The position numbers and the translations under genes are program-made. From positions 41,062-105,061 of IMG/VR virus record IMGVR_UViG_2770939580_000003: a stretch of 64,000 nucleotides of DNA, one strand, 5' to 3'. The notes beneath the pieces are model-generated. The model made no database searches, was not told the DNA's origin, and saw only the letters and a program-made list of their open reading frames with translations. The stretch's first letter is position 1; every line of letters begins with the position of its first letter. The DNA comes from a virus (Duplodnaviria; Heunggongvirae; Uroviricota; Caudoviricetes). Positions 8,572 through 59,025 of the stretch are shown here, piece after piece.

Positions 8572-8600
8572 ATGTATTATATTTGTCTATTTGTGTTACA
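8572..8600 (-). repeat. variant copy of 21-bp intergenic motif (minus: ACACAAATAGACAAATATAATAC) upstream of DnaE-like gene
   Basis: sequence comparison. Confidence 0.4.
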
Positions 8601-8678
8601 TTATAATCACCTCCTCAAATCCTCCTATAAAGAGTCAATTATCCTTAATCTCATACTCTCTATAGGAGAACATTTCAT

Positions 8679-9701
8679 CTATAAGTTATAGACACCTTCA
8701 ACCTTCTTTGCTTCAGGTAGCTGAGATTCAATATCTCGTGCAGTAATTTCCATTAAGTTTTGACGTGACATCTTCTCGCGTCTCTTCATTAATCGAACCG
8801 CCTGATGTCTGATTGCCTTCTCGATAACATTTCTTACATATCTGGCATTACTAAAATGAATCCTCAGGTCTTTTTCATCTTGTATGATCTGTTTAAGTTT
8901 TAAACCTGCTTCATTTGTAAAGCTATAATCTTTCTCTGAAGACATCTTTAAAGCTATCAGCATTAATTCGTCTGTGGAATAATCATCAAAGTTAATCTGG
9001 ATAGGAAATCTTGAGGGCAATCCGGTATTAATCTGAAGGAAATCGTCCATCTCGATAGGATATCCAGCCAATATGATGATTAGATCGTCACTCTTATCTT
9101 CCATAACTTTTACAAGTGTATCTATAGCCTCTTTACCAAAGTCTTTTTCTCCTCCACGAGCAAGACTATACGCTTCATCAATGAAAAGTATCCCACCCAT
9201 AGCTTTTTTTACAAGGTCACGAGTCTTCAAGGCTGTATGACCAATGTACTCCCCCACTAAATCAGCACGTTCAACCTCAATCAAATGGCCTTTGCTTAGT
9301 ACACCCATTTTGTTGAGCATTTTGGATATTATTCTTGCTACTGTAGTTTTTCCTGTGCCGGGATTACCTTTGAAGATCATATGGTAAACCTGTTTGCTGT
9401 TCTTCAATCCCTCATCGCTTCGGTACTTGTTGATTTGGATTAATGAATAAATCTCATATATCAGATCCTTGACTTTATCAAGCCCAATCATTTCTTCCAT
9501 CTCATTAAAAATGTCTGCTGCGGATTCATTATTGTGATTACTTGTTAATGATATGTCCTCATTTTGCTCTAACGGCGCTCTGAGCCCACCATCAGCGTTG
9601 AATATAATATTGATCCTTGAATCATTAACAGTAATTTTCCTTAAACTTTCGTCCACAGTCATCACCTCGTTAAGACAGTATATGCTCCTGTGTTGGTGCA
9701 A
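8679..9701 (-). CDS. AAA+ ATPase, SpoVK/CbbX-like
   Basis: Walker A GNPGTGKTT, Walker B ILFIDEAYSL, sensor/arginine finger region; about 100-aa N-terminal extension. Confidence 0.75.
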   Translation of the reverse strand: MHQHRSIYCLNEVMTVDESLRKITVNDSRINIIFNADGGLRAPLEQNEDISLTSNHNNESAADIFNEMEEMIGLDKVKDLIYEIYSLIQINKYRSDEGLKNSKQVYHMIFKGNPGTGKTTVARIISKMLNKMGVLSKGHLIEVERADLVGEYIGHTALKTRDLVKKAMGGILFIDEAYSLARGGEKDFGKEAIDTLVKVMEDKSDDLIIILAGYPIEMDDFLQINTGLPSRFPIQINFDDYSTDELMLIALKMSSEKDYSFTNEAGLKLKQIIQDEKDLRIHFSNARYVRNVIEKAIRHQAVRLMKRREKMSRQNLMEITARDIESQLPEAKKVEGVYNL

Positions 9702-9756
9702 AATGCTTATCTGATTTTATTGATTATGATATATGTATAGTAGGCCGAAGCCTACA

Positions 9757-10029
9757 TTAAAATGAACCAAATAGTTCGTCCAGTTTGTCATCGTATACCT
9801 CTGAACTTTCCATTTGTTCCTCTTCGCTCTGCATGGAAAGTTCCGTATCCTCCTCAAAAGGGAGAGGCAATTCGTTTATGTTAAGGCTTGAACCAGTACC
9901 AAAAAACAATAGTCTCAATGCCCTCCTAACCACATCGCTTTTATCTTCGTGGGGAGGTAATCTTTTCCACGCTTCAATAAGATCCTCATCTTTATTGGGT
10001 CTAAGTCTTGCTCTAGCAGCTATTTCCAT
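9757..10029 (-). CDS. ribbon-helix-helix small protein with acidic tail; candidate ParR/AlfB-like adaptor for the upstream actin-like ATPase
   Basis: N-terminal KDEDLIEAWKRLPPHEDKSDVVRRALRLL (RHH-like), overlaps end of actin-like gene by 10 nt. Confidence 0.4.
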   Translation of the reverse strand: MEIAARARLRPNKDEDLIEAWKRLPPHEDKSDVVRRALRLLFFGTGSSLNINELPLPFEEDTELSMQSEEEQMESSEVYDDKLDELFGSF

Positions 10030-10997
10030 GATTTCTTTCCAATCTTTCCATATCCTCTAACTTGAGCGAGTTGATCCATCAAAATCTTGTTTGGAAGATC
10101 TAAGTATTCAAAAATAAATCGAGCGGCCCCACCAGCGATTAAGTAGATGTCAAAGTTGGTATTCAAACTTTCAATTTCATTTTTGATTTGTCTAGCTAAC
10201 GATTTAAATGCTTTTTGAATTAGTGGAACTATATTGTGTCCAAGGTAATTACCTGAGATAACATAAGTGTCTAATTCGTATATAGCTGGAGTATGCCCAG
10301 TTAGTTTTTGTATGTAAGTTTGTAATAGCGTGTACGCTTTCTCTACCCCCACTAAAACACTTTTGGATTCTTTTAATATACTGGATTTGCTGAATCCTAG
10401 TAAATTCAAAGTGTAAAATCCCAGATCGACAGTTAGTATCTTTTGTTTGGCTGCTTTTACTTTAGCGATTTTGCCATCGTCACCTAATAGATAGTCCATT
10501 GTAACACCTAATCCTTGAGGAACTATCTTGCATTCTTCAATAACAGGCTGGACAGTAATGTTGTTTCCCTTACCTTTACGAATCTTATATTCACCCTGAT
10601 CAGCCAATCCCAAAAGTTTTTGTTCAAATGGAGCTTTTTGTTTAAAGTAAAAGTCAATAGGAAGTCCACTTACTAATTTCACTTTTTCTTTTTTAGCTAA
10701 ATACCCCAGAGTAGTCTTCATGACCACTTCACTTGTCTCAGCCTCGGCTTTATTATTATTGAGAGAGAAGTATTTAACATCACTGTATTCTACGGCAGCA
10801 TTTCCTACGAACAACTCATCGTTGTAAATGAAGTGGTCTGATTTTATATTTTGTTCAAATAAGTCTTTAGCTTCCCCAGCTATAGTTGGTTGACGAAAGA
10901 ACTTTCCTCCTCTCTCACCTTTAGTCCATTTAAATCCAAGGTCTAAATTTAATGTGTTATACAAAATGGTACAACCTCCTTTTGAAGTCATGTACAC
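10020..10997 (-). CDS. actin-like ATPase (ParM/StbA family); true start probably the TTG at 10964 preceded by AAAGGAGG
   Basis: phosphate-1 NLDLGFKWTKGE, phosphate-2 VDLGFYT, adenosine IYLIAGGAARF motifs; RBS AAAGGAGG lies inside the annotated 5' end. Confidence 0.6.
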   Translation of the reverse strand: MYMTSKGGCTILYNTLNLDLGFKWTKGERGGKFFRQPTIAGEAKDLFEQNIKSDHFIYNDELFVGNAAVEYSDVKYFSLNNNKAEAETSEVVMKTTLGYLAKKEKVKLVSGLPIDFYFKQKAPFEQKLLGLADQGEYKIRKGKGNNITVQPVIEECKIVPQGLGVTMDYLLGDDGKIAKVKAAKQKILTVDLGFYTLNLLGFSKSSILKESKSVLVGVEKAYTLLQTYIQKLTGHTPAIYELDTYVISGNYLGHNIVPLIQKAFKSLARQIKNEIESLNTNFDIYLIAGGAARFIFEYLDLPNKILMDQLAQVRGYGKIGKKSWK

Positions 10998-11100
10998 AGA
11001 TATACCAGATTGAGATAGTCTGTTCCATTTGTGTACATTTGTGGCCTCTATAGATTGATTGTACCATTTATAATTGTTTATGTACAGTATTATCTTTGTA
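10990..11100 (-). promoter_or_regulatory. cluster of TGTACA hexamer repeats (4 copies) upstream of actin-like gene; candidate centromere/operator
   Basis: TGTACA at about 10990, 11033, 11069(GGTACA variant), 11090 read from sequence. Confidence 0.35.
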
Positions 11101-11106
11101 TTTTAA
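11086..11106 (-). repeat. 21-bp intergenic motif copy (plus AGTATTATCTTTGTATTTTAA)
   Basis: exact reading. Confidence 0.7.
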
Positions 11107-11159
11107 ATATCTACTTTACACCCCTGTATCACCCATGATCCTGTAAAATTGATGTTTCA

Positions 11160-12643: not shown

Positions 12644-13282
12644 TTAAGAAAATGCTGGAGCCAACTTAGTAATACTACGCTTATATGCCTGATGAACTGC
12701 CTGACGACTCACCTTTAACTCTTTGCCGATATCTGTTAATGCATCGCCCTCAAAAAAGTACTTAAATGAAACAACTTTTTCTTTTTCGGTTAAACTAGAC
12801 TCAATTAAATTAGTTAGTTTATGATTAAACTCATCTTCTTCAACCTTGTCAAAATCGAGATGAGATTCATTTGATAAGACCTCCGCAATAGTCTTTTCAC
12901 TGCTTTGATCTGCTTTCCCAAGAGGTGTATCTAAACTAATCGAATCAAATGAGCCTCGACACTTCATGTGCTTATAGCGTTCAGCTTTCACAAACTCCAT
13001 CCATACAACTCGACCAGCATACGTAACAAACTTAATGTCCTTTGAGGTATCATATGTATCAAATGCAACAATCAAACCGTATAAACCCAAACTTACCAAG
13101 TCATCTAAATCGTCCGTGTACCCAGCTTTTTTCCATTTGTTTGCCAGTTTTACTGCGATACGAATATTATTGTTGATTACCTTATCCTTCAGCTCTTTAC
13201 TGTCAGTTTCTTTTGCTACCAAAATCATTGCCTCATTATCAAAATTCGGGTCATACTGTTGTAGCATCATATTAAAATTCAT
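12644..13282 (-). CDS. sigma-70 family RNA polymerase sigma factor (regions 2 and 4 only), phage-encoded
   Basis: region 2: DLVSLGLYGLIVAFDTYD...FVTYAGRVV; region 4 HTH: LTDIGKELKVSRQAVHQAYKRSITKL. Confidence 0.75.
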   Translation of the reverse strand: MNFNMMLQQYDPNFDNEAMILVAKETDSKELKDKVINNNIRIAVKLANKWKKAGYTDDLDDLVSLGLYGLIVAFDTYDTSKDIKFVTYAGRVVWMEFVKAERYKHMKCRGSFDSISLDTPLGKADQSSEKTIAEVLSNESHLDFDKVEEDEFNHKLTNLIESSLTEKEKVVSFKYFFEGDALTDIGKELKVSRQAVHQAYKRSITKLAPAFS

Positions 13283-13464: not shown

Positions 13465-14211
13465 TTAACTAAATGTTGGTTCAGGCTTCGCTTCGACCTC
13501 AACACAGTCTGAATCGGACTCAACATCGATAATCAAAGAAGTATAGTTCTGATTCAATTTCATTAGCAAGAGCTCAAAATCGTTTAAGTGTCTAAGAGAC
13601 TTCAAATCCTTTACTTCATGACGCTCAATGTCCCACCCTTTATCTTTACTGTCCTTCCAACGATGCAATCTGATGGATTGGTTCATCTCTTCATCTTTCT
13701 CACATTCAAAAATCAAGTTTGCATATTCGTAAGACCCCCAGTGTCTTTCTTCGCTGTACTCTACCTCTAATGTAACTTCAGCATATTCATAACTAACGCC
13801 ATCATCATAATCAACTTCTAATTTATTCGTATCAATATTCTTACCTACAAAGTCCATCCAATGTTTGTACAGATCTGATACATTTAAATGCTTTACTTTT
13901 TCGTCTGTAGTCATAAGATTCTTGAAATTACTAAGAAGTTGTTTATTCTCAAGTGCTGAGTTTTGGAGTACATCTACCAGTACCGCATCCAATTTAGTTA
14001 TGTATTGTGAATAGTCGTAAGTCTCAAGATAGGGAACCATTACCGATTTAACTTTATCCTCAATGATCTTTGTGACATCGCCGTATGAGCGGAATAGATT
14101 TTCAAGTGCATTTACTACACCTTTCTCCAGTTGTTGTTCAATCAACTTCTCTACAGTTCCATCCTCAAGCTTTCTAGTAATTGTATCTTTAATGCTATTT
14201 TCAAGTGTCAT
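13465..14211 (-). CDS. hypothetical acidic protein (248 aa)
   Basis: ORF track; between sigma factor and GHKL protein. Confidence 0.5.
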   Translation of the reverse strand: MTLENSIKDTITRKLEDGTVEKLIEQQLEKGVVNALENLFRSYGDVTKIIEDKVKSVMVPYLETYDYSQYITKLDAVLVDVLQNSALENKQLLSNFKNLMTTDEKVKHLNVSDLYKHWMDFVGKNIDTNKLEVDYDDGVSYEYAEVTLEVEYSEERHWGSYEYANLIFECEKDEEMNQSIRLHRWKDSKDKGWDIERHEVKDLKSLRHLNDFELLLMKLNQNYTSLIIDVESDSDCVEVEAKPEPTFS

Positions 14212-20053: not shown

Positions 20054-20089
20054 TAAAAGAAAAAGTACAGGTTCTTTATGACCTGTACT
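20054..20089 (-). terminator. rho-independent terminator after dfrA (AGTACAGGT/ACCTGTACT stem, T-run)
   Basis: read from sequence. Confidence 0.7.
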
Positions 20090-20118
20090 TAGTTTATCAT
20101 CTATTATGTTATTTGTCT

Positions 20119-20139
20119 AGTATTATCTTTGTGTTTTAA
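20119..20139 (-). repeat. 21-bp intergenic motif copy (plus AGTATTATCTTTGTGTTTTAA) overlapping dfrA stop
   Basis: exact reading. Confidence 0.7.
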
Positions 20140-20632
20140 TTTTCTTTATTAGATGTTTTGTTTTAATCTTATACACTGTTTTATCACCTGTTACTTCTAC
20201 GGTTTCTTCGGTGCATATATCCCAGTCATTCTCATCGTAAGAAGGAAAATATGAATCGCCTTTGAATGTATGCTGAATCAAGTTGATGTACATCTCATCT
20301 ACTAATGGAATAAATTGTTCATATAATGATGATCCTCCTATAATAAAGGATTCTATATCCGACTTATCTATGTATTGTAGAACATCTTCAATGTTATTTA
20401 CTACAATGCAGCCCTCTGATTTAAAATTGAGGTCAGAAGTAAGAACTATATTTGTCCGATTAGGCAGCACATTCCCTATTGATTCGTAAGTGTTTCTACC
20501 CATTACAATATTTTTAAACATAGTCTTTTCCTTAAAGTACTTCAGATCCCAAGGTATATACCATGGAAGTTTTCCATTATTGCCAATCAGCCTATTCTCG
20601 TCCATTGCTACAATGATTGATAATTTGCTCAT
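20123..20632 (-). CDS. dfrA: dihydrofolate reductase
   Basis: [18 protein letters not shown]...GRNTYES...LTSD...[12 protein letters not shown] signature; 4-nt overlap with thyA. Confidence 0.85.
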
Positions 20633-22281: not shown

Positions 22282-23313
22282 TTACAAATCATCGAATCCG
22301 TTATCATCGCCAACTTTACCATAGTTGCGAGATTTTGCTTCAAAGAAATCAGTTTTTGTTGAGTTTAAAGCTTCATCTGAAAATGGCTTGATCCATGGCA
22401 TACAATTCACATCTACACCTTCATATAACTTCTCCATGCCCATTAACTTCAGACGTTTATTTGCTGTATATTTGATATAATCGCTCAACTCATCCAGATC
22501 AATACTTTGAATGTTTTTGAGAGTATAGTGACCCCAATTTGTTTCAAGTTTAACTGCTTGATCAATCGTATCATAGACATACTCAATGTTCTCAGGTGTG
22601 TCCAGTTCAGGGAAGTCTGCTAACAATTGCTTGTACACTTCCGCAAAGAAATAACAATGCTGATTCTCATCTCTTTGAATATACGAGACCATCTGACTTG
22701 TTGCCATCATCTTCTGGTCACGAGCTAGATTGTAGAAGAAGGCGAATGTGCTATAGAAGAAGATGCCTTCAAGAATTAAATCAGCAACCATTGACTTAAA
22801 GAACGTTTGTGGATTGGGGTTGTCACGGAATTCCTGATAGATATCTGAAATGAATTGGTTTCGTTCTAGTAATACAGGATCATGTTTCCAATACTCAAAG
22901 ATTTCTTTCTGTTCTTGATCAGATACAATTGAAGAAAGCACATAGGAATAAGACTGATTATGTACAACTTCTTGCTGTCCAATGATTGCTGAGATTGCTT
23001 CCAACGATGAATCTGTAAAATACCTTTTAACATCACCTACAAACATCGTCTGCATTGAGTCCAATACTGCAAGCAGAGAGATGTTGATTTTGAATGTGTC
23101 TTGTTCTACTTTGCTAAGTTGAGCGAACTGCGAAGCATCCTTGGACATTGGAATCTCATCTGCAATCCAATGATTAAGTAACAAAACTTTGTATAGTTTA
23201 TACATGTGAGGCATTCGGATATCGTTCCAGTTAAGGATACCCGAATTTTCCCCCTCGATAATACGTGTAGATTTATTTGGTGCTTCCGTGTTGAAGATTT
23301 TCTGAATTTTCAA
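22282..23313 (-). CDS. nrdF: ribonucleotide reductase class Ib beta subunit
   Basis: Ferritin-like R2 motifs, EQDTF..ISLLAVLDSMQ.., C-terminal DF tail. Confidence 0.9.
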   Translation of the reverse strand: MKIQKIFNTEAPNKSTRIIEGENSGILNWNDIRMPHMYKLYKVLLLNHWIADEIPMSKDASQFAQLSKVEQDTFKINISLLAVLDSMQTMFVGDVKRYFTDSSLEAISAIIGQQEVVHNQSYSYVLSSIVSDQEQKEIFEYWKHDPVLLERNQFISDIYQEFRDNPNPQTFFKSMVADLILEGIFFYSTFAFFYNLARDQKMMATSQMVSYIQRDENQHCYFFAEVYKQLLADFPELDTPENIEYVYDTIDQAVKLETNWGHYTLKNIQSIDLDELSDYIKYTANKRLKLMGMEKLYEGVDVNCMPWIKPFSDEALNSTKTDFFEAKSRNYGKVGDDNGFDDL

Positions 23314-23356
23314 TTACGTATTCTCCTTATATTTAACTAGCGCATGACTCGTAGCC

Positions 23357-25681
23357 TTAAACTGTTAAAGCTCTACTTCTAACATAATAAGTAGTTTTCA
23401 TGCCAACTCTCCATGCATGAAGATGAAGTTCTAAGAAATCAGTTGCTTTGATGTCCGGTCGAACGTAGAAGTTGAAGCTTTGTCCCTGATCTACATGACG
23501 CTGACGGGCAGCCGCCATATTAACGGAAGCATGTTGATCCACCATGAACGCCGTTTGGTAATAAGGGCTTGTTTTTTCGGACAGATCGGGAGCGGGATTA
23601 GCAATCTTATATGTGGTCTTTTCTTCATATGAAATTAATTCATATAGTGGATCAATCGATGCGGTTGAGCCAGCAATGATTGATGTAGATCCATTTGGGG
23701 CAATGGCGAACAGCCAAGCATTACGGATACCGTTTTGCTGTACTTCGGCTTGCAGTTCTTTCCACTGATCAGTAGTTACATATTGCCCTTCACGATCACC
23801 CGACACATAGTCTCGCTTAGCAAAGTACTCTCCTGTGTCCCAGTCAGAACCTTTAAATTTAGGATAGTGTCCTTTTTCTTTGGACAGTTCCATGCTGGCT
23901 TTTACAAGTAGATAATTAATCTTTTCATATAAGTTATCGTTATACGTTACGGCTTCTTCAGACTCCCAACTAATACCTTCGAGAGCAAGCAGATGATGCA
24001 GTCCGAATGTTCCTAATCCAACAGCTCTATACTGTGCATTCGTGTATTGTGCTTGCAGTACATCAATATTGTTGATGTCGATAACATTATCTAGCATACG
24101 AGTTTGAATTGGGACAAGCCGCTCAAGAACATTATCTAGCACTGCTTTAGACAAGTTAATGGAGTTAAGATTACATACCACAAAGTCGCCGGGAATTTTA
24201 GAGATAATGATACGCGTTTGACCGTCTTTGGTTACCAACTCTTCTTTTTCAACTACAGTAGGAGATTGATTTTGCATAATCTCTGTACAAAGATTCGAGG
24301 AAAATATCATTCCATGTACACCGTTAGTGTTTGCGCGATTCACTGTATCACGATAGAACATATACGGTGTTCCGGTCTCTAATTGAGATTTAAGTACACG
24401 CTTCATGATGTCAATCGCCTGAACAGTGATTCTCTGTAGTAGAGGATGGTTTACTGCTTCTTCATATTTTTCTCTGAAGGTTCCTTTGCCTAATTCCTCG
24501 TCATAGAAGTCTTCCAATCCAAGTGATCGTCCATTGCTATCTTTCCATCCCATAATAGACTTTACTTCATGTGGACAGAACAAACTCCATTCTCCTCGAC
24601 TCCCTACCCTTTCCATGAACAAGTCGGGAAGACAGACGCCATGGAAGATATCGTGTGCTCTCATTCGTTCATCGCCATTATTGAGTTTCAGATCAAGAAA
24701 AGCTAGAATGTCACGATGAAATACATCCAAATACACCGCAATCGCACCTTTGCGTGTACCGAGCTGATCTACACTAACCGCCGTATTGTTCAATTGACGA
24801 ATCCAAGGTACTACACCCGAGCTTGTATTTTTGTGTCCTCGAATATCAGAGCCTCTTGCTCTAACCTTGCCAAGATAGACTCCAATTCCTCCACCTGTTT
24901 TACTTAGTCGTGCTACATCAGTATTTGAATCAAAAATGCCTTCCAACGAGTCATCTACAGTGTCAATGAAGCAGCTAGACAATTGACCAGCAACTTTTTT
25001 ACCTGCATTGGACATTGTTGGTGTAGCAGCAGTCATATACAGGTTACTCATTGCCCAGTAGGATTCTTTGACTAGATCCATACGCTTATCTTCAGGTTCT
25101 TGATGCATTAGATACATCGCAATAACCATATATCTTTGTTGTGGCAACTCCATTAGCTTCCCATCAAAGTCATGTGTTAAATAACGCTCTGTAAGGGTGA
25201 GTAATCCAATATAATCGAATAGTAGATCATATTCTGGATTAATGTACTCTCCCAGCTCTTCAATCTGTTCCTTTGTATAACAGGTGAGAAGTTCTTCTCT
25301 GAAGATTCCTTTTTCAACAAGCGTTTGAATCAGAGGATAAAATGAACCGTATGGCTCATCAACATATGATTTATATTTTCGATTGTTTGCGGCCTTTTTA
25401 TAGAGCTTTGTCAGTAGCCCTCTTGCAGCAACAAACTTCCAGTTCGGTTCTTCTTTTGTAATCAAGTCTAGAGCTGTCATCGAGAATGCTTCACTGATCT
25501 CTTCTGCTGTTACCTCATCACGTCTTAGTTTACTATTAACACCTTTGACTAACTTCTCCTTGTCTAAGTCAAATCCACTCATTACTCTGTCTGCATACGT
25601 CTTAATTCTATTCTCATCAAAAGCTAGTTGTCTGTTATTCGGTTTGTTTACTAATCGGGGCATTAAAATCCTCACTTTCAA
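23357..25681 (-). CDS. nrdE: ribonucleotide reductase class Ib alpha subunit, apparently uninterrupted (no intein/intron)
   Basis: NLCTEI active site, C-terminal redox tail, 774 aa. Confidence 0.9.
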   Translation of the reverse strand: MKVRILMPRLVNKPNNRQLAFDENRIKTYADRVMSGFDLDKEKLVKGVNSKLRRDEVTAEEISEAFSMTALDLITKEEPNWKFVAARGLLTKLYKKAANNRKYKSYVDEPYGSFYPLIQTLVEKGIFREELLTCYTKEQIEELGEYINPEYDLLFDYIGLLTLTERYLTHDFDGKLMELPQQRYMVIAMYLMHQEPEDKRMDLVKESYWAMSNLYMTAATPTMSNAGKKVAGQLSSCFIDTVDDSLEGIFDSNTDVARLSKTGGGIGVYLGKVRARGSDIRGHKNTSSGVVPWIRQLNNTAVSVDQLGTRKGAIAVYLDVFHRDILAFLDLKLNNGDERMRAHDIFHGVCLPDLFMERVGSRGEWSLFCPHEVKSIMGWKDSNGRSLGLEDFYDEELGKGTFREKYEEAVNHPLLQRITVQAIDIMKRVLKSQLETGTPYMFYRDTVNRANTNGVHGMIFSSNLCTEIMQNQSPTVVEKEELVTKDGQTRIIISKIPGDFVVCNLNSINLSKAVLDNVLERLVPIQTRMLDNVIDINNIDVLQAQYTNAQYRAVGLGTFGLHHLLALEGISWESEEAVTYNDNLYEKINYLLVKASMELSKEKGHYPKFKGSDWDTGEYFAKRDYVSGDREGQYVTTDQWKELQAEVQQNGIRNAWLFAIAPNGSTSIIAGSTASIDPLYELISYEEKTTYKIANPAPDLSEKTSPYYQTAFMVDQHASVNMAAARQRHVDQGQSFNFYVRPDIKATDFLELHLHAWRVGMKTTYYVRSRALTV

Positions 25682-25730
25682 ATGTTTATATCTTTGTAAA
25701 AGAATTATTTCATTAAATCATATGTATTAT

Positions 25731-25976
25731 TTATGTGTACATCTCTTCAACTTCTACTACAATAATTCTGTCTCCAATGTTCAAAACATGATTTTGTTTA
25801 AAGAATCTAGTCATTGCGTATTCAACTGCAACCTGTTTCATCACATGAGTTGTAACTGGACTATCTCCTGCCATTTCATAACAATCTTCCTCGTCTACAT
25901 TCACGCAAAATTCTAAATCTTCATACTGCTCTCCAAAGTCGTGTTGCAAATATACATTATACTGCACTATCATCAC
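25731..25976 (-). CDS. hypothetical protein (not NrdH/NrdI)
   Basis: no CxxC or flavodoxin motif. Confidence 0.45.
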   Translation of the reverse strand: MMIVQYNVYLQHDFGEQYEDLEFCVNVDEEDCYEMAGDSPVTTHVMKQVAVEYAMTRFFKQNHVLNIGDRIIVVEVEEMYT

Positions 25977-26638: not shown

Positions 26639-26693
26639 CTCTTCTTTGTTGTTGTTTACTCTCTTAGTATAAGTTGATAATCACGTTTTGTAA

Positions 26694-26714
26694 AGTATTA
26701 TCTTTGTCTTTTAA
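26694..26714 (-). repeat. 21-bp intergenic motif copy (plus AGTATTATCTTTGTCTTTTAA)
   Basis: exact reading. Confidence 0.7.
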
Positions 26715-27335: not shown

Positions 27336-27611
27336 CTATAGTTGATATCGTTTAACTGTTTCTTTAACATGGGTGACTTCAAATGTGTCAAATCCTGCGA
27401 GCCTTACTTGTTCGGCAATGATATCTGGAGAAGGCAATTCCTCATGTTGTGTCACGATTGTATCTGCCTCTTCTCCATTCAAAGCAACATCTTCGGCGTT
27501 CATCATTTCAAGAAGAAGATATTCGTAAGTTTCTTCGTCAAAGAGTCTCATACAGTCCCTCCTACTCGTTACGAGCAATTCCAGCATTAGCCCAGAATAC
27601 AGCCTGTTCAA
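27336..27611 (-). CDS. hypothetical acidic protein
   Basis: ORF track. Confidence 0.4.
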   Translation of the reverse strand: MNRLYSGLMLELLVTSRRDCMRLFDEETYEYLLLEMMNAEDVALNGEEADTIVTQHEELPSPDIIAEQVRLAGFDTFEVTHVKETVKRYQL

Positions 27612-40061: not shown

Positions 40062-40307
40062 TTACTTGATTTTGTAAAATTCTTTTTTACAGCACATCCA
40101 GAATGAATGGTTCTCATTTCCGTTGTCGTCTTCTATGTATGTTTCCTCATCTATCGCAGCACAATCGTCGTATCTTTTTAACCTCAGCTCGTACATTCCC
40201 CCAACAGTGACTGGAACATTTCTAAGCTTGTCTACGATTTTAACATAGGTGGCTTCCTCCTCATTTGTTGTTGGCACTAAATCAGATTCGCTTATCTCAA
40301 CATACAT
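40062..40307 (-). CDS. hypothetical protein
   Basis: ORF track. Confidence 0.45.
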   Translation of the reverse strand: MYVEISESDLVPTTNEEEATYVKIVDKLRNVPVTVGGMYELRLKRYDDCAAIDEETYIEDDNGNENHSFWMCCKKEFYKIK

Positions 40308-40363
40308 TCGACCATCCCTTTCGATCTGATATTCATATTATAACTCTATAACAACATAAGTCA

Positions 40364-40384
40364 AGTATTATATTTGTGTTTATT
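40364..40384 (-). repeat. 21-bp intergenic motif copy, variant (plus AGTATTATATTTGTGTTTATT)
   Basis: exact reading. Confidence 0.6.
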
Positions 40385-41659: not shown

Positions 41660-41673
41660 ATAACCTCCCCCTG

Positions 41674-43173
41674 TTAGTAATTATGATCATCGTAAACCGT
41701 TGTGAATCCAACTTCATACCATGTATTGATTCCAAAGTAAGGTTTTAACACCAATACCTTTTGCCCAGTTTTGTTATCTGCTCCACGTCTATTCTTTCCA
41801 TAGAATAGCAAGTAATATTGATGTCCCTTATCTCGTTTAAGAGGTTTATCTATGTATGTTTGAGTAAAATCATCCCACTGATTTACTAATAACTCATGTT
41901 TACCACCTTCGTATTCATCATCCCACATAAACCTGCCCAAAATTAACACAGATGCTTCGTTCTTGATTTTCTTTGCATCTCCTAAAGCATATTCATTGAG
42001 GAATCTCATCTTTAATGCTGTGTCTGCGAGTTGGACATTGATCCATACAGCTAGGTTCAACCCGCCACCATTAGGACGTGCAAGTTTATATATCTCCTTC
42101 ATGTCTTCCACAAAACGTTCCCAACGAGCCATGCTTGCATCGCCTTCAGATGGCTTACCTGTATCTATGATGATCCGCTTAAGTCCTCTTGCTGCATAAT
42201 GTTTAACAAGTTTTTTCACATCGTCCATGATGTAATTTTCCATGAAGACAAAAGTAATTAATTTTTCATCCCCGTCACACAGATCTTTTACCCATCTTAC
42301 GGCCTTACGAAGTCTTTCTTTTTCATCATCACTAAATCCGCCTTCATTAAGTTTTTGCCTATCGACATATTCTTTCGTTCCTACACCCATCGCTGTAACA
42401 ATTAACGCTTTTTTAAACTCAGAGATCGACTGCTCATTTGCTATAACTAAAAGTTTTTCTTTGTGCTGAATACATGACATGATAACTTTGTTTACAGTAA
42501 GACTCGTCTTACCACTACCACCGAATCCACCATACATATAAACATGCCCATAATCCCATCCAGTGGTAATCTTAGTCATTCGCTTACTCTCATAGAATGG
42601 TAACCCAACCGTAGGATTCTCATCCCAGTCTGCAATTTCTTCGTCTAATCCTTCTAGCAAAAAATGCTCATCATATTTGTTATCACCGTCAATCCCTAAT
42701 TGAAGAATCTTATCATTCCAATATGTATGTAATTGCTCTTTGGTCATCTTTTTGTAGTTGTACTTACCCTCATCCGTAATGACTCTTTCTCCAAAGTATT
42801 CAATCAGTTTATTGATCAGATTGTACTTTTTCACTTCGCCATAGTAAGCATCTAAATTATCCTCTTTGTCTCTTACCTCCGAAGATAGTTCGTGTATTGT
42901 TTCGAATCCTCCATATTTTTCATAGGTGGTAGAAGTATTTGTTTCGGCAACTACCTGTGAGACTGATATGTCGTCAAAAACCTTGATTCCTTTTTCAGAA
43001 AGCTTTCTTCCCAATGTAAAAAAGAATCCGTAGGCCGTGTTCATAAACGATTTATAATTTAGCTTTTCTTCAGAATAAAAATTATAGTTATCAGGATTTC
43101 TCCAGAACAAACCAGTTAGGTATCCTTCGGCTGCAACGATTTCTCTACTTAATCTCTCTTTGATACTTGACAC
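41674..43173 (-). CDS. DnaB-like replicative DNA helicase (RecA-fold)
   Basis: Walker A GGFGGSGKTS, Walker B region, about 500 aa. Confidence 0.75.
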   Translation of the reverse strand: MSSIKERLSREIVAAEGYLTGLFWRNPDNYNFYSEEKLNYKSFMNTAYGFFFTLGRKLSEKGIKVFDDISVSQVVAETNTSTTYEKYGGFETIHELSSEVRDKEDNLDAYYGEVKKYNLINKLIEYFGERVITDEGKYNYKKMTKEQLHTYWNDKILQLGIDGDNKYDEHFLLEGLDEEIADWDENPTVGLPFYESKRMTKITTGWDYGHVYMYGGFGGSGKTSLTVNKVIMSCIQHKEKLLVIANEQSISEFKKALIVTAMGVGTKEYVDRQKLNEGGFSDDEKERLRKAVRWVKDLCDGDEKLITFVFMENYIMDDVKKLVKHYAARGLKRIIIDTGKPSEGDASMARWERFVEDMKEIYKLARPNGGGLNLAVWINVQLADTALKMRFLNEYALGDAKKIKNEASVLILGRFMWDDEYEGGKHELLVNQWDDFTQTYIDKPLKRDKGHQYYLLFYGKNRRGADNKTGQKVLVLKPYFGINTWYEVGFTTVYDDHNY

Positions 43174-45194: not shown

Positions 45195-45623
45195 TCATTG
45201 CTCTACCCACTTGTGCTTCAGTGCACCTTTACGCTTCAATCGCAACGCATTTTCACTTGGCTTGACAAACTCTTTCATCATAGACATCTTTCCATACTTG
45301 TCGTATTGCCAGCCATCCTTACCTGTACCTCTGCAATCGGGACAAGCGTAACCTGTATCCCAAATGCTTGCTCGTTCAACCCCTCCGCCGTTGCACCATT
45401 TGCAGTCCGGAAGGATCGAGAGGAGATAATCTTCCGACTCCTTGAAAAGTTCCCATTGTGTATACCAGTACTTTTTTAATTCTTTTTTTGTTTTGCGTGA
45501 TGTCAATTGAATATCCCCGTTATTACGTTCATAATACTTCCAGTGTTTATCTATGTATGTGGTATTATTGATAATTAGCTCCTCCTTTAATTTTATGTTA
45601 CCATACATATTTTTATTCTTCAA
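45195..45623 (-). CDS. hypothetical Cys-rich protein (TTG start in track; CKWC..CPDC)
   Basis: ORF track. Confidence 0.5.
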   Translation of the reverse strand: MKNKNMYGNIKLKEELIINNTTYIDKHWKYYERNNGDIQLTSRKTKKELKKYWYTQWELFKESEDYLLSILPDCKWCNGGGVERASIWDTGYACPDCRGTGKDGWQYDKYGKMSMMKEFVKPSENALRLKRKGALKHKWVEQ

Positions 45624-45643
45624 GTATTATTTTTGTCTTATTA
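45623..45643 (-). repeat. 21-bp intergenic motif copy, variant (plus AGTATTATTTTTGTCTTATTA)
   Basis: exact reading. Confidence 0.55.
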
Positions 45644-45916
45644 AATAATCTTCAGTTCCATGTCCAATGCTAACGCTAACTTAATTAACACCTCAATACT
45701 GGGAACATTATCATCCTCAGTTAAATCGACAATTGATTTTTCACTAACTTGAGCTTTCAGTGCGAGATCTGTATTACTAATCCCCTCGTCTGTTTGTTTT
45801 CTCAATATAGCCACACATAGTTTGGCAGACAGTGCGATCATCTTCTTTCTAACTTCTGAATCATAATCAAGCGATTCTTTAATTTCAGTCCATCTTTTAA
45901 GGTTTTTAACTTCCAC
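45641..45916 (-). CDS. XRE-family helix-turn-helix transcriptional regulator
   Basis: ISNTDLALKAQVSEKSIVDLTE HTH segment. Confidence 0.5.
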   Translation of the reverse strand: MEVKNLKRWTEIKESLDYDSEVRKKMIALSAKLCVAILRKQTDEGISNTDLALKAQVSEKSIVDLTEDDNVPSIEVLIKLALALDMELKII

Positions 45917-50057: not shown

Positions 50058-50693
50058 TTAAAGAGAATCCCAAACATCCCCAATTCTTTCTTTCATTTGC
50101 TCCTGTTTAATTTTTTCAATCTCTTTTCTTAAACTGATTGCTTTTTTGTGCACTTCAGAGTAGTGATTGAGTTCTTCTTTTATATCCTTACTCAATTCGA
50201 ACCCGTAAGAGAATCTGACCTTTCCGCCTTTTCTATTGAAATTATTGTCTATTCCCCTAGCTGCTCCATATTCTGAATCATGAACTGTAATCATTTTGTG
50301 ATTGGCAAATATAGTGCCGAGTTCTCCATAAATGTACCGACATTCCTCATCTAAAAACTCAGGTATACGATGCTCACTATAATGCGTATACGTATGACTA
50401 TTTTCCTTCAGATGCCACCATAGCACTTCCTTTTCAATGTGTTTTTCTACCACATCTGAAACGTTAGACACTAGAGTTTGAACATCTTTTTTCAGCAATC
50501 TCAATTTTTCTTCTCCTAGCTCCGCAGCCTTCTCAGCATGTTCAATAACTAGTTTTTTAGACTCTGTATTATACAAATCTCTAAAAAAAGAGATAAGTTT
50601 TTCTTTAAATATTCCCTGTATTTTTTTTAATTCAACTTTTAAACCTTCGACTTCTGCATTTTTAGTTTGGATTTCTTCATTAAAGTTTCTCAT
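50058..50693 (-). CDS. hypothetical protein
   Basis: ORF track. Confidence 0.5.
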   Translation of the reverse strand: MRNFNEEIQTKNAEVEGLKVELKKIQGIFKEKLISFFRDLYNTESKKLVIEHAEKAAELGEEKLRLLKKDVQTLVSNVSDVVEKHIEKEVLWWHLKENSHTYTHYSEHRIPEFLDEECRYIYGELGTIFANHKMITVHDSEYGAARGIDNNFNRKGGKVRFSYGFELSKDIKEELNHYSEVHKKAISLRKEIEKIKQEQMKERIGDVWDSL

Positions 50694-50780
50694 GGTTTCG
50701 CCCCCTACATATTATCAATTAATTATTCAACAAATATGTCTCCATTTCCTGCTGTCATTCCATTTATATCATACTATTAT

Positions 50781-50801
50781 TATATTATCTTTGTGTATTA
50801 A
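50781..50801 (-). repeat. 21-bp intergenic motif copy (plus TATATTATCTTTGTGTATTAA); here flanked on minus strand by TTGACT(-35)...TATAAT(-10)
   Basis: exact reading. Confidence 0.65.
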
Positions 50802-50814
50802 AGTCAACACCCTT

Positions 50815-51198
50815 CTATTTTAATTGTGTTATATCAATTCTTAAATATTCAGTCAGAATCAGAGTTACATCTACCTTCACTTTACTCCACAGCAAAACCA
50901 TCTTATGAGTGTAACCTCTAATTGAATATTCTACATTTAGACTGTCGCTTGTCTTCGCTGCTTCAATGATTTTAATACCATTACTTTTAAAGTAGTTTTT
51001 CAACTTATATATCTCGACAGTTACTTTTCCCTGTATCTCATCGAGGTGATTAGTGTACACAGACTTCATCCTCATATCTGAATCGGATATTTTCTTCTTA
51101 TCGTTTTCAATTATGGTCATTAGATATGGAAGTTCAACATATCTTTTCACAGCTTCTAACTCCTCATGCGTCTGTCTCAAACGGATCTCCACCTTCAA
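50815..51198 (-). CDS. hypothetical protein
   Basis: ORF track. Confidence 0.5.
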   Translation of the reverse strand: MKVEIRLRQTHEELEAVKRYVELPYLMTIIENDKKKISDSDMRMKSVYTNHLDEIQGKVTVEIYKLKNYFKSNGIKIIEAAKTSDSLNVEYSIRGYTHKMVLLWSKVKVDVTLILTEYLRIDITQLK

Positions 51199-51529
51199 TG
51201 ATTTTTACAGAAACCAAGTCATCAAAATTGAGAAGTTCATAGCCTGTTTCTGTTTCCAATTTTATTCTCTTTCCCGAAGCACTAACGGACGCTACTATAC
51301 CCTTAATTATCCTATTACCATACTCATTAAAAATTTCAATGTCTGTCTCCAAAGTATAACTTAACGACATACGCAAGTTAAGAGAAATAATCTCAACTTC
51401 GTCTTCGTGTAAAGTTGGTCTTGTTGTAACATTATCCTTGGATCGATGCTCAATAATTCTTTCTTTATGTTGTGGCAACATCATGCGACTTGATTCCCAT
51501 AGTCCATTTGCTTGCAATTTTTTACTCAT
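51164..51529 (-). CDS. yolD: YolD-like protein (accessory to Y-family polymerase)
   Basis: about 120 aa, immediately downstream of and overlapping uvrX as in SPbeta uvrX-yolD. Confidence 0.55.
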   Translation of the reverse strand: MSKKLQANGLWESSRMMLPQHKERIIEHRSKDNVTTRPTLHEDEVEIISLNLRMSLSYTLETDIEIFNEYGNRIIKGIVASVSASGKRIKLETETGYELLNFDDLVSVKIIEGGDPFETDA

Positions 51530-52767
51530 CTGTAGTGTCCTCCAATTTTATTTGATCTGTCTATGGCTTGACCAGCAGAGGTAATAGAACTTGCTCTGAG
51601 TATAGCTATATCTCCATAACGATCTTTGATATCATCCATTACTTTATCTATGGCTCTCTTCTGTTCTTGATCATCAAATAATGACATTTGATATGTCTCA
51701 GCATTAGAAAGATTGGACAATGATATCCCCACTCGTCTCACAGGTTGACCATCCCAATGTTGCCGAAAGATCTGTTTAGCTATCTTACATACATCTACGG
51801 TTATATTAGTGGGATCTGGCAATTTGACCTGTCTGCTAAATCCAGTTGGATGATCAAAGTCTGCACCCGATAAACTCATAGTAACTACGCTGCCCATCAA
51901 TCCCTTTTTCCGCGCGCGTCTGCAAACTTCCGTACATATATCTTGTATTAAAACATCGATCTCCCACTGTTCTGTATAGTCTCTAGGGAGCGTCATGCCA
52001 TTGCCAATATCCTTTTGCACACTATGGGTATTTATGGTTACAGGAGAGTCATCAAGTCCATTTGCCACTCTCCAAATAACCTCACCATTTACACCCCATT
52101 TGCTTCTCAGTTTTGACAGTGGAGTATTCGCAAGTTGTTTTATTGTACGAACTCCCATTTTCCACAAATGTTTTTCCATTCTCGATCCAATACCCCACAT
52201 GTCACGAATTGGCTTATCTCCTATGTGCTGATGAAGTTCTTCTTTTCTAAGAAAGAATACTCCACCTTCTATTTTCTTCGCGATCATATCGCAGCAAAGT
52301 TTACTCATCACTTTGTTGGTCGAGATACCAGCTCTCGCATATACACCCGTTTCATTGTAAATCTTATCTTGAATTTGTCTTGCTAAATCAATTGGGTCAT
52401 TACCGAAAAGATGTAGAGATCCGGTCACATCACAAAACAGCTCATCGATGCTATAAGGCTCAACTAAATCGGTAAACTCCTCAATAATGCTCATAATTTG
52501 AGTCGAAACCTCTATATATTCTTGCATATGTGGTCTCACAATGATCAACTCAGGACACTTTTGAAGTGATTGCCATAATGGTTCAGCGGTTGACACACCT
52601 TTTGCTTTAGCTAGAGGACATGCAGCAAGTATTATTCCCGAACGTCTTGCTGGATCTCCTGCAACCGCCAATGGTTTGTTTTTGTACTGTGGCATTTTAG
52701 CCTTTTCAACACTGGCGTAAAACGACTGCATGTCAATTAACATAATTGTCCGTTCTTTCTTCGCCAT
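51526..52767 (-). CDS. uvrX: Y-family (UmuC/DinB-like) translesion DNA polymerase; start set at MAKKERTIMLIDMQSFYASVE (RBS GGGAGTGA)
   Basis: LIDMQSFYASVE motif (DMDxFFAxVE of Y-family), little-finger C-terminus. Confidence 0.85.
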   Translation of the reverse strand: MAKKERTIMLIDMQSFYASVEKAKMPQYKNKPLAVAGDPARRSGIILAACPLAKAKGVSTAEPLWQSLQKCPELIIVRPHMQEYIEVSTQIMSIIEEFTDLVEPYSIDELFCDVTGSLHLFGNDPIDLARQIQDKIYNETGVYARAGISTNKVMSKLCCDMIAKKIEGGVFFLRKEELHQHIGDKPIRDMWGIGSRMEKHLWKMGVRTIKQLANTPLSKLRSKWGVNGEVIWRVANGLDDSPVTINTHSVQKDIGNGMTLPRDYTEQWEIDVLIQDICTEVCRRARKKGLMGSVVTMSLSGADFDHPTGFSRQVKLPDPTNITVDVCKIAKQIFRQHWDGQPVRRVGISLSNLSNAETYQMSLFDDQEQKRAIDKVMDDIKDRYGDIAILRASSITSAGQAIDRSNKIGGHYR

Positions 52768-52790
52768 TACTATCACTCCCATAATTAAAT

Positions 52791-52836
52791 AAGAACGTCT
52801 GTTTGTATATGTATTATACACCGAACAGACGTTCTT
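52791..52836 (-). promoter_or_regulatory. two Cheo/LexA (SOS) boxes (GAACGTCTGTTC and AAACAGACGTTC on minus strand) flanking an extended -10 TGTATAAT of the uvrX promoter
   Basis: 15-bp inverted repeat AAGAACGTCTGTTTG / CGAACAGACGTTCTT; matches B. subtilis LexA consensus CGAAC-N4-GTTCG. Confidence 0.6.
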
Positions 52837-52925
52837 TATGCAACAGGAAATTTTTGTAGTTCGATTAAACATTAAATTGTATAATACAAAAGGTATTCTA
52901 TTTCACATAACAAGGGAGAGTTAAA

Positions 52926-53411
52926 ATGAAGGACAAGTTAAAGGGACTAGTAATAGGTATCTTGATCGGTTCCACAATTACAGGAGCAACTGCTTTTGCA
53001 GCAAGTGGAACATCGGTTAAGGCAGTGATTCAGAAGATTAACTTATATGTAGATGGGACAAAGAAAACAACGGCAAACGTAATTACATACAATAACACTA
53101 CATATGTGCCAGTTAGAAGCATGAGCAGTGCATTGGGGCAAAACGTAGCTTTACGCGATAATAACCTTTATATTGGGAAGATTCCTAAGTTAAACATTAC
53201 GGAGAAAGAAGCAGTAAAACTTGTTAAGAACAAATATGGCTATAATAGTTCATATTTAATCGTTGAAGTTGATAATGAAGTAGATAATCAATATGTAGTT
53301 CATGTTTATGAAATAGTTATTGATGATGAGAAAACTGGCGAAGGTCATACAGCAACATATGGCTGGTATTATGTCGATAAATCAAGCGGGAAAATATCAT
53401 CAATGTTCTAA
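52926..53411 (+). CDS. secreted protein with signal peptide, Cu-amine-oxidase-N1-like stalk domain and PepSY-like C-terminal domain
   Basis: signal peptide ...ATAFAASG; stalk motif KINLYVDG..YNNTTYVPVRSMSSALG; PepSY-like ITEKEAVKLVKNKYG...YGWYYVDKSSGKI; RBS AAGGGAGAG. Confidence 0.55.
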   Translation: MKDKLKGLVIGILIGSTITGATAFAASGTSVKAVIQKINLYVDGTKKTTANVITYNNTTYVPVRSMSSALGQNVALRDNNLYIGKIPKLNITEKEAVKLVKNKYGYNSSYLIVEVDNEVDNQYVVHVYEIVIDDEKTGEGHTATYGWYYVDKSSGKISSMF

Positions 53412-57697: not shown

Positions 57698-57880
57698 TGC
57701 TCATTCTCCTCCTTTCTTTTTGGCGGTATAAAAATATTCTTCATAGATAAATTTAAACGCTGCCTCTTCTTGATCTATAAGGCTCTCTTCGCCATCTATA
57801 CCGTATCCCGCATTACATCCTTGAGCGAAAAAATAACGGAGCATTTCTTTCAAACTGTCCCTCTTTATATATGGCATAAA

Positions 57881-58069
57881 TCATGGCTCCCATCTATATA
57901 GTTCATAGTCGTTATCGACCAATTCATAGTAATCAGAACTATGATCACCTGATAATTTCTCATTTAGGATATCAACTATCATATTCCCATAATATTCACT
58001 TACATTTTCACAAATTAAATTGTCATTTTCTGACTCTCTATTAAAGTTATCTTTGCAAATGATCTTCAT
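57881..58069 (-). CDS. hypothetical protein
   Basis: ORF track. Confidence 0.4.
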   Translation of the reverse strand: MKIICKDNFNRESENDNLICENVSEYYGNMIVDILNEKLSGDHSSDYYELVDNDYELYRWEP

Positions 58070-58290
58070 TTTAACTCCTCCAGCACTTCTTCAATATTTT
58101 TAAAGTTGCCCCATACCTCATCATAGTAATAGTTAACATTTCCATCTATACTATCGACCGATATTTTGCAACAATCCTTCCCCTCTTCGTCACAGTAATT
58201 GTTCCATCGTACATTTACTTCTGGGCTGCCACTGTGCTTCTGAAAATATGTAACCATATATGTGGGAAGTCTACTTATTTGAACAATCAT
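58066..58290 (-). CDS. hypothetical protein
   Basis: ORF track. Confidence 0.4.
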   Translation of the reverse strand: MIVQISRLPTYMVTYFQKHSGSPEVNVRWNNYCDEEGKDCCKISVDSIDGNVNYYYDEVWGNFKNIEEVLEELK

Positions 58291-58332
58291 AATTATTTCG
58301 CCTCTTCCTATGAAACGTGCCTTTTACTTAGA

Positions 58333-58698
58333 CTATGATTGCAAATCATCTACTCGAACTAAGCCCCACTTCTCTTCGTCCTCTGGCGTTGCTTCTCGTA
58401 TGAATGTCGCTTCAACATGAGGACATAAGCATCCACCTTCTCCTCGTACAATCATTTCAATCAGGTTATCTGCACACCATGAACCTTTATTGTATCTGAA
58501 CTCAATATCTTCATCCTTCCAATGCTCTGGCACGTTTATTACCATCCTGACAGTAAAATCCATTACAACTGTTCTACTCCGAATTACACATTCGGAAGTA
58601 TGCGACTCTCCAATCAAGCTATGGCAATAAAAACAACGATCAGGCTTACCTGCTGGTCTTGCTGCATATTCGGTTACAATCCAGTCTTCTCTTTTCAT
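58333..58698 (-). CDS. hypothetical Cys-rich protein
   Basis: ORF track. Confidence 0.5.
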   Translation of the reverse strand: MKREDWIVTEYAARPAGKPDRCFYCHSLIGESHTSECVIRSRTVVMDFTVRMVINVPEHWKDEDIEFRYNKGSWCADNLIEMIVRGEGGCLCPHVEATFIREATPEDEEKWGLVRVDDLQS

Positions 58699-58743
58699 TT
58701 AGATACCTCCAATTTTGATGAAACAGATCTTTTATGTAATTCC

Positions 58744-58932
58744 TTAATGCTTATCTCTTAGCTCAGGAAATAGGAATATAATAACGTCTATAACTTCAAC
58801 TTTCTTTCTTGTGACATCAATAGTTGAATGCAACTTAGGCGATCTATTTCTTGCTGCAACACTAATGCTCAGTTCCTCTGCTAATCCCAACATTCTCTCT
58901 ATTCTGTTCCCTTGCTGCACTCTATGTATCAC
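58744..58932 (-). CDS. hypothetical protein
   Basis: ORF track. Confidence 0.4.
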   Translation of the reverse strand: MIHRVQQGNRIERMLGLAEELSISVAARNRSPKLHSTIDVTRKKVEVIDVIIFLFPELRDKH

Positions 58933-59004
58933 ATCCTTTCATAAGAAAAACGGCGATGTAACAACTCGTTAAAGTCATTATATCACCGTTTTCACCAAAT
59001 GTAT

Positions 59005-59025
59005 AGTATTATCTTTGTGTTTTAA
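59005..59025 (-). repeat. 21-bp intergenic motif copy (plus AGTATTATCTTTGTGTTTTAA) overlapping stop of Gp157 gene
   Basis: exact reading. Confidence 0.7.

Follow-up and report, generated by a model that had tools for sequence, protein, structure and literature searches.

A 21-bp box attached to early promoters of a Paenibacillus prophage: most likely the binding site of an MrpR/SroF-type lysogeny repressor

Results

Gene content and affiliation of the window

The DNA analyzed here (referred to as the window) is a 64,000-nucleotide stretch of the virus record IMGVR_UViG_2770939580_000003 (positions 41,062 to 105,061), in which a 21-bp A/T-rich sequence, the box, recurs at promoters. The window is transcribed almost wholly leftward. 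It carries genes for replication and nucleotide metabolism (DNA polymerase III alpha, a DnaB-like helicase, Toprim and RecJ-like proteins, LigB, NrdEF, ThyA, DHFR, and MazG-like and Gam-like proteins), as well as genes for an actin-like ALP protein, a sigma-70-family protein, a UvrX/YolD pair and an Acb2/Tad1-like protein; a holin, an amidase and a serine recombinase are encoded at its left end. Scans of the window for tRNAs and Rfam families gave no hits.

Approximately ten window proteins match proteins of Bacillus phage SPbeta at 20-50% identity, with the gene order broadly kept. A megablast search of GenBank phages with 20 kb of the window revealed no close DNA match, and a distant blastn search found only the ribonucleotide reductase genes. 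The ALP gene led to relatives, among them a Paenibacillus sp. genome and three IMG/VR contigs. Because of the SPbeta protein matches, the lack of close GenBank phage DNA and the Paenibacillus relatives, we assign the window to a large Paenibacillus prophage that is, by sequence comparison, a distant relative of SPbeta.

A repeated box in a single orientation

The consensus of the box, read on the minus (coding) strand, is TTAAAACACAAAGATAATACT. The copies and the promoters associated with them are as follows.

59005-59025, minus strand: box TTAAAACACAAAGATAATACT, exact consensus; promoter region 58977-59025, with −35 TATACA (59000-59005), a 17-nt spacer, TGn and −10 TATAAT (58977-58982); the box overlaps the stop codon of the Gam-like gene 59022-59534; first downstream gene 58744-58932.
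50781-50801, minus strand: box TTAATACACAAAGATAATATA, three mismatches; promoter region 50779-50807, with TTGACT (50802-50807), 17 nt and TATAAT (50779-50784); first downstream gene 50058-50693.
45623-45643, minus strand: box TAATAAGACAAAAATAATACT, four mismatches; promoter region 45595-45643, with −35 TTGAAG (45618-45623), a 17-nt spacer, TGn and −10 TAACAT (45595-45600), only 8/12 consensus matches; the box overlaps the stop codon of gene 45641-45916.
40364-40384, minus strand: box AATAAACACAAATATAATACT, four mismatches; promoter region 40337-40384, with −35 TTGACT (40359-40364), a 16-nt spacer and −10 TATAAT (40337-40342); first downstream gene 40062-40307.
26694-26714, minus strand: box TTAAAAGACAAAGATAATACT, one mismatch; promoter region 26666-26714, with −35 TTTACA (26689-26694), a 17-nt spacer and −10 TATACT (26666-26671); heads the operon running into nrdE/nrdF.
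20119-20139, minus strand: box with the exact consensus; promoter region 20091-20139, with −35 TAGACA (20114-20119), a 17-nt spacer, TGn and −10 TAAACT (20091-20096); the box overlaps the stop codon of the DHFR gene 20123-20632.
11086-11106, minus strand: box TTAAAATACAAAGATAATACT, one mismatch; promoter region 11058-11106, with −35 TGTACA (11081-11086), a 17-nt spacer, TGn and −10 TACAAT (11058-11063); serves the ALP gene 10020-10997.
8573-8593, minus strand: diverged, probable box CAAATAGACAAATATAATACA, ahead of the DNA polymerase III alpha gene 5362-8505; the usual offset yielded no convincing promoter.

The repeat is real and far beyond chance: five copies with at most three mismatches (11086, 20119, 26694, 50781 and 59005) compare with 0.01 expected, and none of 100 shuffles gave five. 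An earlier, sequence-only reading of this DNA had assigned one 21-bp sequence to seven coordinates; the positions and the enrichment hold, and the sequence itself is exact in two copies, the remainder carrying one to four mismatches. The seven copies are the top seven hits of a position weight matrix (PWM) in the window, with 40364 and 45623 ranking sixth and seventh, and all hits of at least 10 bits lie on the minus strand, which agrees with the single orientation described before.

The boxes are intergenic or lie across the stop codon of the upstream gene. The latter occurs at three sites (59005, 20119 and 45623), and not at two as previously counted. The next leftward start codon lies 55-92 bp away in six of the seven copies, the start after 45623 being ambiguous. 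Analysis of information content delimited a conserved block of approximately 21-22 bp, beyond which the only conserved bases are those of the promoter hexamers. No dyad symmetry was found in the box. Seven to eight copies of this non-palindromic, A/T-rich element are spread across 50 kb of the window.

The exact 21-mer had one match each in IMG/VR and in the JGI metagenomes, with identical flanks and no protein similarity to the window. A scan of the collections with a 15-mer of the box gave, among the matches listed, single chance hits only.

The box abuts the −35 hexamer of sigma-A-type promoters

A sigma-A-type −35 hexamer starts on the last base of the box, a T, in six of the seven copies, and a −10 hexamer comes 16-17 nt further on; four of these six promoters have a TGn extended −10. 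Under strict criteria (at least 9/12 consensus matches) a promoter begins exactly at the last box base in five of the seven copies, and under relaxed criteria in six. The background rate for a promoter at that base, given the T and this strand, is 0.0043, which corresponds to P ~3e-11. The promoters at 26694 and 20119 were reported independently by a general promoter scan. Because promoter-like sites are not enriched overall in the A/T-rich window (71 found, 74.8 expected), it is the fixed offset alone that is informative.

At 50781, as the sequence-only reading had it, the box fills the 17-nt spacer of the promoter TTGACT-17-TATAAT (11/12 consensus matches); it also reaches into the −10. The further suggestion of that reading, that GATAATACT could act as the −10 in the other copies, is unsupported because there is no −35 at the right distance upstream, where positions score only 3-5/12. 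Nor is the box itself a promoter, as had also been considered, since two sigma elements would not fit into it, and canonical sigma-A −35 and −10 hexamers come after it at a fixed offset. The box sits directly against the −35 of host-type promoters heading early operons.

Two of these promoters have hairpins close by. On the minus strand, a terminator-like hairpin with a T-run at 20063-20090 starts just after the −10 of the 20119 promoter, and a conserved 8-bp stem (ACGGTGAT...ATCGCCGT plus T-run) at 58950-59000 spans the −10 of the 59005 promoter. The terminator of the upstream operon and the next promoter appear to be interleaved at both sites; transcripts from that promoter would therefore lack the 5′ arm of the hairpin.

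Parallel change of the boxes in the closest relative

The closest relative available, IMGVR_UViG_2879469214_000003 (127,851 bp; judged to be a P. xylanexedens prophage and referred to as R), was compared with the window over 72.8 kb. R carries its own variant of the box, TAATTACACTAAAATAATACT, in at least ten copies that have the same relation to the −35, plus one inverted copy. A 17-mer of this variant occurs seven times on the R contig and, among the matches listed, once on every other IMG/VR contig.

Six window boxes have orthologous boxes in R, at matching promoters and in syntenic positions: 59005 (contig position 54339 of R), 50781 (46201, with the same layout, TTGACT-box-TACAAT), 40364 (36199, the exact R-type consensus), 26694 (25348), 20119 (18042) and 11086 (10309). 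The region orthologous to 45623 was not found in the compared part of R. From the window to R, the substitutions T2A, A4T, A5T and A10T are present in five of the six pairs, and position 13 changes to A in all six; 11 box positions are invariant between the two genomes, and the −35 and −10 elements are conserved. Such parallel change at dispersed boxes points to a single genome-encoded, sequence-specific protein whose specificity differs between the phages, and it counts against a generic UP element.

In each of four further relatives, the few detected sites show a distinct box variant. These variants share the promoter-proximal half of the box (AAAATAATACT plus the −35), and the distal half varies.

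Of the two diverged copies proposed in that reading, the one at 8573-8593 is credible, since its orthologue in R (at 7806, TAATTAGACTAATATAATATA) has the R-type bases, and the one near 25723-25733 is weak and unconserved in R. Several other PWM candidates were rejected: 40045, 25723 and 19907 either remain unchanged when the box type changes in R or are unconserved there (19907 also lies inside an open reading frame, ORF), 4634 lies inside an ORF, 38520 is a ribosome-binding site, and 44784 has no orthologue in the compared parts of R and no promoter at the usual offset. A further box-like sequence, ATTAAACAATAAAATAATACA (35041-35061, minus strand), lies approximately 23 nt ahead of a start codon. 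R has the identical sequence, and four other relatives, whichever box type they have, carry it ahead of YorF-like genes; because it does not change along with the boxes, we consider it a separate conserved element.

The comparison with R also revealed strongly diverged genes within a well conserved background. The sigma factor (12644-13282) is 58% identical between the two phages, NrdF/NrdE (22282-25681, minus strand) 36-40%, and the Toprim and DnaB-like proteins (40592-43173, minus strand) 24-29%; the genes neighbouring these loci are 85-97% identical. This pattern suggests allelic replacement of replication and transcription modules with the box-bearing promoters left in place.

A candidate repressor in the lysogeny module of the relatives

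Approximately 10 kb past the point that matches the right end of the window, R contains an operon encoding a MazF-like toxin, a 68-amino-acid (aa) protein, a protein 28% identical to SPbeta YopQ (E = 1e-40) and a protein resembling MrpR (YopR), the SPbeta repressor. The MrpR-like protein matches the Pfam families MrpR_N_CB (1.6e-24) and MrpR_C_cat (5.8e-13), is 24% identical to SPbeta YopR (E = 4e-27), and finds in PDB the entries 9rd5/9rgl (6e-32), MrpR 8a0a (3.5e-25) and YopR 8bj6. It is identical to a protein of P. xylanexedens. Among its 35 homologues, all those with a named organism are from Paenibacillus, and several bear the NCBI name 'phage lytic cycle repressor MrpR family'.

The gene order of the operon is kept in four more loci. 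A repressor of the MrpR/SroF family is encoded in the same genome as the boxes in R and in four further relatives. A box is found in the relatives at the promoter of the mrpR operon, and an inverted box just 3′ of mrpR. Of the residues aligned to those with which SroF, the MrpR homologue of phage phi3T, reads DNA (T22..Y26 in the CB domain; K233-R238 in helix alpha-13), some are conserved among the Paenibacillus homologues and others vary. This residue pattern is compatible with MrpR-type recognition of the boxes, and only that.

The lysogeny module to which the operon belongs occupies contig positions 70469-79369 of R (locus L048, 1-8901) and is also found in the relative loci L077-L080. Downstream of mrpR it encodes a 215-aa protein, an AgrB-like protein and a 36-44-aa AgrD-like peptide (...ASWTVIHNEPVPEEMK). 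Together with the phage-borne MazF, these genes form, by sequence similarity, an Agr-type peptide-signalling module plus toxin. At the corresponding place Bacillus SPbeta-like phages carry the arbitrium system, and these phages act on the MazF of the host. In L080 alone, a tRNA-like sequence (approximately 13640-13720), recognized by eye, seems to have been inserted into the long leader that separates the box-bearing promoter from the 296-aa gene.

Other features of the window

The sigma factor 12644-13282 belongs to the sigma-70 family and contains regions 2 and 4. The 325-aa protein downstream of box 11086 was considered as a YopR homologue and rejected, as it is the actin-like ALP protein (gene 10020-10997, minus strand; ALP_N/MreB-like_C); its gene is followed by a 90-aa ORF (9757-10029). 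The promoter and leader of the ALP gene contain three TGTACA palindromes that are kept in four relatives, and the region 9757-11085 (minus strand) looks like a DNA-positioning module of the ParM/ParR/parC type within the prophage.

The protein encoded at 27562-27918 (minus strand) has an Acb2/Tad1 hairpin domain (Pfam 6.9e-22) and is likely an anti-CBASS/anti-Thoeris sponge. A LexA (Cheo)-like box, CGAACAGACGTTCT (52822-52835; one mismatch to CGAAC-N4-GTTCG), heads the operon of the uvrX-like (51526-52872) and yolD-like (51164-51529) genes, opposite a divergent plus-strand gene (52926-53411).

Discussion

The boxes as probable dispersed operators

The repeat described here is most likely the window phage's version of the SPbeta repeated element (SPBRE), the binding site of MrpR/SroF proteins. 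We consider the boxes to be dispersed operators of the master lysogeny repressor of the phage, probably a member of the MrpR (YopR)/SroF family, with a probability of about 0.72. By analogy with the Bacillus phages, we infer both that an MrpR homologue is the binder and that its binding represses. A box attached in fixed orientation to sigma-A promoters of early or lysogeny-control operons is what an operator array should look like, and this arrangement was found in five (strict criteria) or six (relaxed) of the seven copies. The sequence-only reading had proposed a common regulator, perhaps the phage sigma factor or a repressor; a promoter-associated element shared by many units and served by one phage-specific factor agrees with our results, and nothing points to the sigma factor. 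The repeated element of SPbeta that it mentioned was the right lead, given the SPbeta-related phage, the MrpR/SroF-type proteins of its relatives and the phi3T-like geometry.

The repressor would be a monomeric protein with a tyrosine-recombinase fold, encoded, judging from the closest relative, outside the window, approximately 10 kb past its right end. Each box would offer it an asymmetric, A-tract-rich site of approximately 21-22 bp, present in one orientation and both abutting and overlapping the −35 of a host sigma-A promoter at the start of an early replication or nucleotide-metabolism operon; at 50781 the box would instead cover the spacer and −10. In the lysogen, the repressor may be clamped on approximately 22-26 bp including the −35 (or the spacer and −10 at 50781) and would keep RNA polymerase off the −35/UP region or the spacer/−10, so that all early operons are silent together. 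Upon induction, release of the repressor would allow these operons to fire together.

Several points weigh against this interpretation. No MrpR homologue was found within the 64-kb window, and because of this the repressor of the window phage is deduced from its relatives. Within the lysogeny module, the Myb-like, YopQ-like, 215-aa and AgrB-like proteins diverge in parallel among the relatives, as does the sigma factor between the window and R; because the module proteins and the sigma factor diverge together, covariation alone does not single out MrpR. The best match of the window box anywhere in SPbeta has at least 5/21 mismatches, and those in the ten SPBRE promoter regions have 6-9. The box is thus not the SPbeta SPBRE sequence itself, of which there is no exact match; sequence identity with SPBRE is, however, a weak criterion, because the boxes of phi3T and SPbeta differ from each other too. 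The resemblance between the window and phi3T boxes (AAAATAA..TAC(T) beside the −35) is modest for A/T-rich DNA. Furthermore, activators, too, classically bind at such a place, centred near −47 and in contact with the −35.

This last point leads to an explanation in which the box is bound by a phage activator, or by a dual activator/repressor, that recruits RNA polymerase to a weak −35 (class I/II, approximately −37 to −57). Six of the seven boxes lie directly upstream of and touch the −35, several of these hexamers are imperfect (TATACA, TAGACA, TGTACA), the lone in-spacer copy at 50781, where the same protein would have to repress, gives the two-geometry pattern of a dual regulator, and genome-specific variants suit any sequence-specific protein. 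Early promoters, however, must work on naked incoming DNA before any phage protein is made, four of the promoters already have a TGn extended −10, the homologous SPbeta and phi3T systems repress with the same geometry, and no activator candidate was found in the window; we therefore regard activation as unlikely. An operator function for another lysogeny-module protein, such as the divergently transcribed Myb-like protein, also appears improbable to us. The Myb-like protein does diverge between relatives at least as much as MrpR (53-57% versus 66-80% identity), and the relatives with the most similar box variants are the most similar pair for this protein. Yet an asymmetric, A-tract-rich box of 21-22 bp without dyad suits read-out by a monomeric SroF-type protein, a small Myb/HTH (helix-turn-helix) domain typically reads far shorter sites, and the link between MrpR and SPBRE is experimental in related phages.

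A strong, phage-typical UP element, contacted by the alpha C-terminal domain and boosting early promoters with no dedicated binder, would account for the position of the box (−37 to −57, which fits the −40 to −60 of a generic A/T tract) and for its A/T richness. It would not lead one to expect specific C and G positions kept to 21/21 identity across 39 kb, an identical set of five substitutions recurring at 5-6 scattered orthologous sites in two related phages, a copy in a promoter spacer or, in the relatives, an inverted copy downstream of a gene, and we find it very hard to sustain. Still less probable is a promoter, or part of one, read by the phage sigma factor 12644-13282, in spite of the presence in the window of this protein with both regions 2 and 4 and its 58% identity between two phages whose boxes differ. 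Such a promoter should comprise two elements unlike those of sigma-A, separated by approximately 14-18 nt; the box is one contiguous block of 21 conserved bases with no room for two elements at least 14 nt apart, no conserved second element accompanies it besides the sigma-A-like −35/−10, one copy serves as spacer in a near-consensus sigma-A promoter, and the homologous boxes of SPbeta and phi3T are repressor sites. As for a mobile or selfish short repeat, similar to a miniature inverted-repeat transposable element (MITE), or a chance low-complexity repeat, the repetition itself speaks for it and nothing further. The element has only 21 bp, neither terminal inverted repeats nor target-site duplications were found, its flanks are unrelated save for the promoter elements, no related copies were found among the matches listed for IMG/VR and the JGI metagenomes, where the exact 21-mer had its single match in each, and the sites are orthologous and syntenic in R, which leaves this explanation scarcely credible.

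This clade differs from the Bacillus phages in the surroundings of the repressor gene: the repressor operon starts with the phage-borne MazF-like toxin and is followed by the AgrB/AgrD-like peptide module, where Bacillus phages carry arbitrium. We tentatively propose that boxes and MrpR-type repressor together form interchangeable immunity types in the Paenibacillus SPbeta-like clade, that positions 2, 4, 5, 10 and 13 may constitute the specificity code for a monomeric recombinase-fold repressor, and that this core might be wired to a different cell-cell signalling input; we hold this proposal with considerably more doubt than the operator function itself.

The class of element and the repressor family have already been described for Bacillus SPbeta-like phages, and the mechanism is not new; what is new lies in the details, namely the box sequence, Paenibacillus as host genus and the evident parallel change of box type from one relative to another. 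In the literature searched we found nothing on MrpR in Paenibacillus phages. The present observations would extend SPBRE/MrpR-SroF lysogeny control, in which a single monomeric recombinase-fold repressor acts on many scattered boxes, each attached to a promoter, from the Bacillus arbitrium phages to a distant Paenibacillus lineage. They also provide a map of early transcription units for 64 kb of otherwise unannotated DNA. Moreover, the window and R represent a natural experiment in which five box positions were switched in parallel at orthologous promoters, and the pair could be used to learn how SroF-type proteins read DNA and how new immunity types originate.

Comparison with known systems

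SPBRE was predicted in 1999 (Lazarevic et al., as cited in PMC10516654). The MrpR site of SPbeta was identified as SPBRE at ten promoters by ChAP-seq (chromatin affinity purification sequencing), electrophoretic mobility shift assays and reporters (Kohm et al. 2023, PMC10516654). According to that study, PaimR and PyosX are under repression by MrpR. From the ten SPbeta promoters we derived the SPBRE sequence TAGACAAATACAAAWAATATGTATATAAT, whose conserved 15-mer lies mostly in the spacer/−10 and, at aimR and yonX, upstream of a separate −35. The window boxes resemble SPBRE in being an A/T-rich repeat, in one orientation, at sigma-A promoters that head early and lysogeny-control operons at approximately ten scattered places in a phage of ~130 kb, in having two geometries (within the promoter or just upstream of the −35), and in belonging to a phage lineage with the YopQ-MrpR gene pair. 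They differ in sequence (TAGACAAATACAAAWAATATGTATATAAT in SPbeta, TTAAAACACAAAGATAATACT(-35) in the window) and in the prevailing geometry, the SPbeta copies lying mostly in the spacer/−10 and the window copies mostly abutting the −35. The hosts also differ (Paenibacillus versus Bacillus), and the shared proteins are 20-50% identical.

The SroF system of phi3T is closer in geometry. SroF is reported in a 2025 preprint to act as a monomer that reads 24/26 bp of a non-palindromic box with two A-tracts, and its sites are numerous and scattered over the phi3T genome (bioRxiv 10.1101/2025.11.27.690993). In our scan of phi3T the box, read in gene direction, is ...AAAAATAAAATTACTA and ends in ...AAAATAAAATTACTA, after which the −35 follows: directly at 76028 (TTTACA-17-TATAAT), 90120 (TTGACG) and 58066, and after one base at 68771, upstream of aimR. 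Like the window box, the phi3T box (26 bp, CAGTAATTTTATTTTTATTCTTAATG, with a co-crystal structure) is asymmetric, rich in A-tracts and present in many dispersed copies, with a −35 right after it (...AAAATAAAATTACTA in phi3T, ...AAAGATAATACT + TGACTT in the window). The repressor gene of phi3T is closely followed by one copy (74808); the Paenibacillus relatives likewise have a copy there, in their case inverted. The conserved block is shorter in the window (approximately 21-22 bp versus 26 bp), its register to the −35 is off by approximately 2 bp, and the 5′ half is unrelated.

Compared with lambda-type CI and its operators, the proposed window operators are non-palindromic and extend over more than 50 kb at many promoters instead of clustering at 1-2 control regions, and the repressor proposed here has a recombinase fold and is not an HTH dimer. 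What the two systems would have in common is a repressor-operator set that shifts together between related phages, with operator variants specific to the immunity type.

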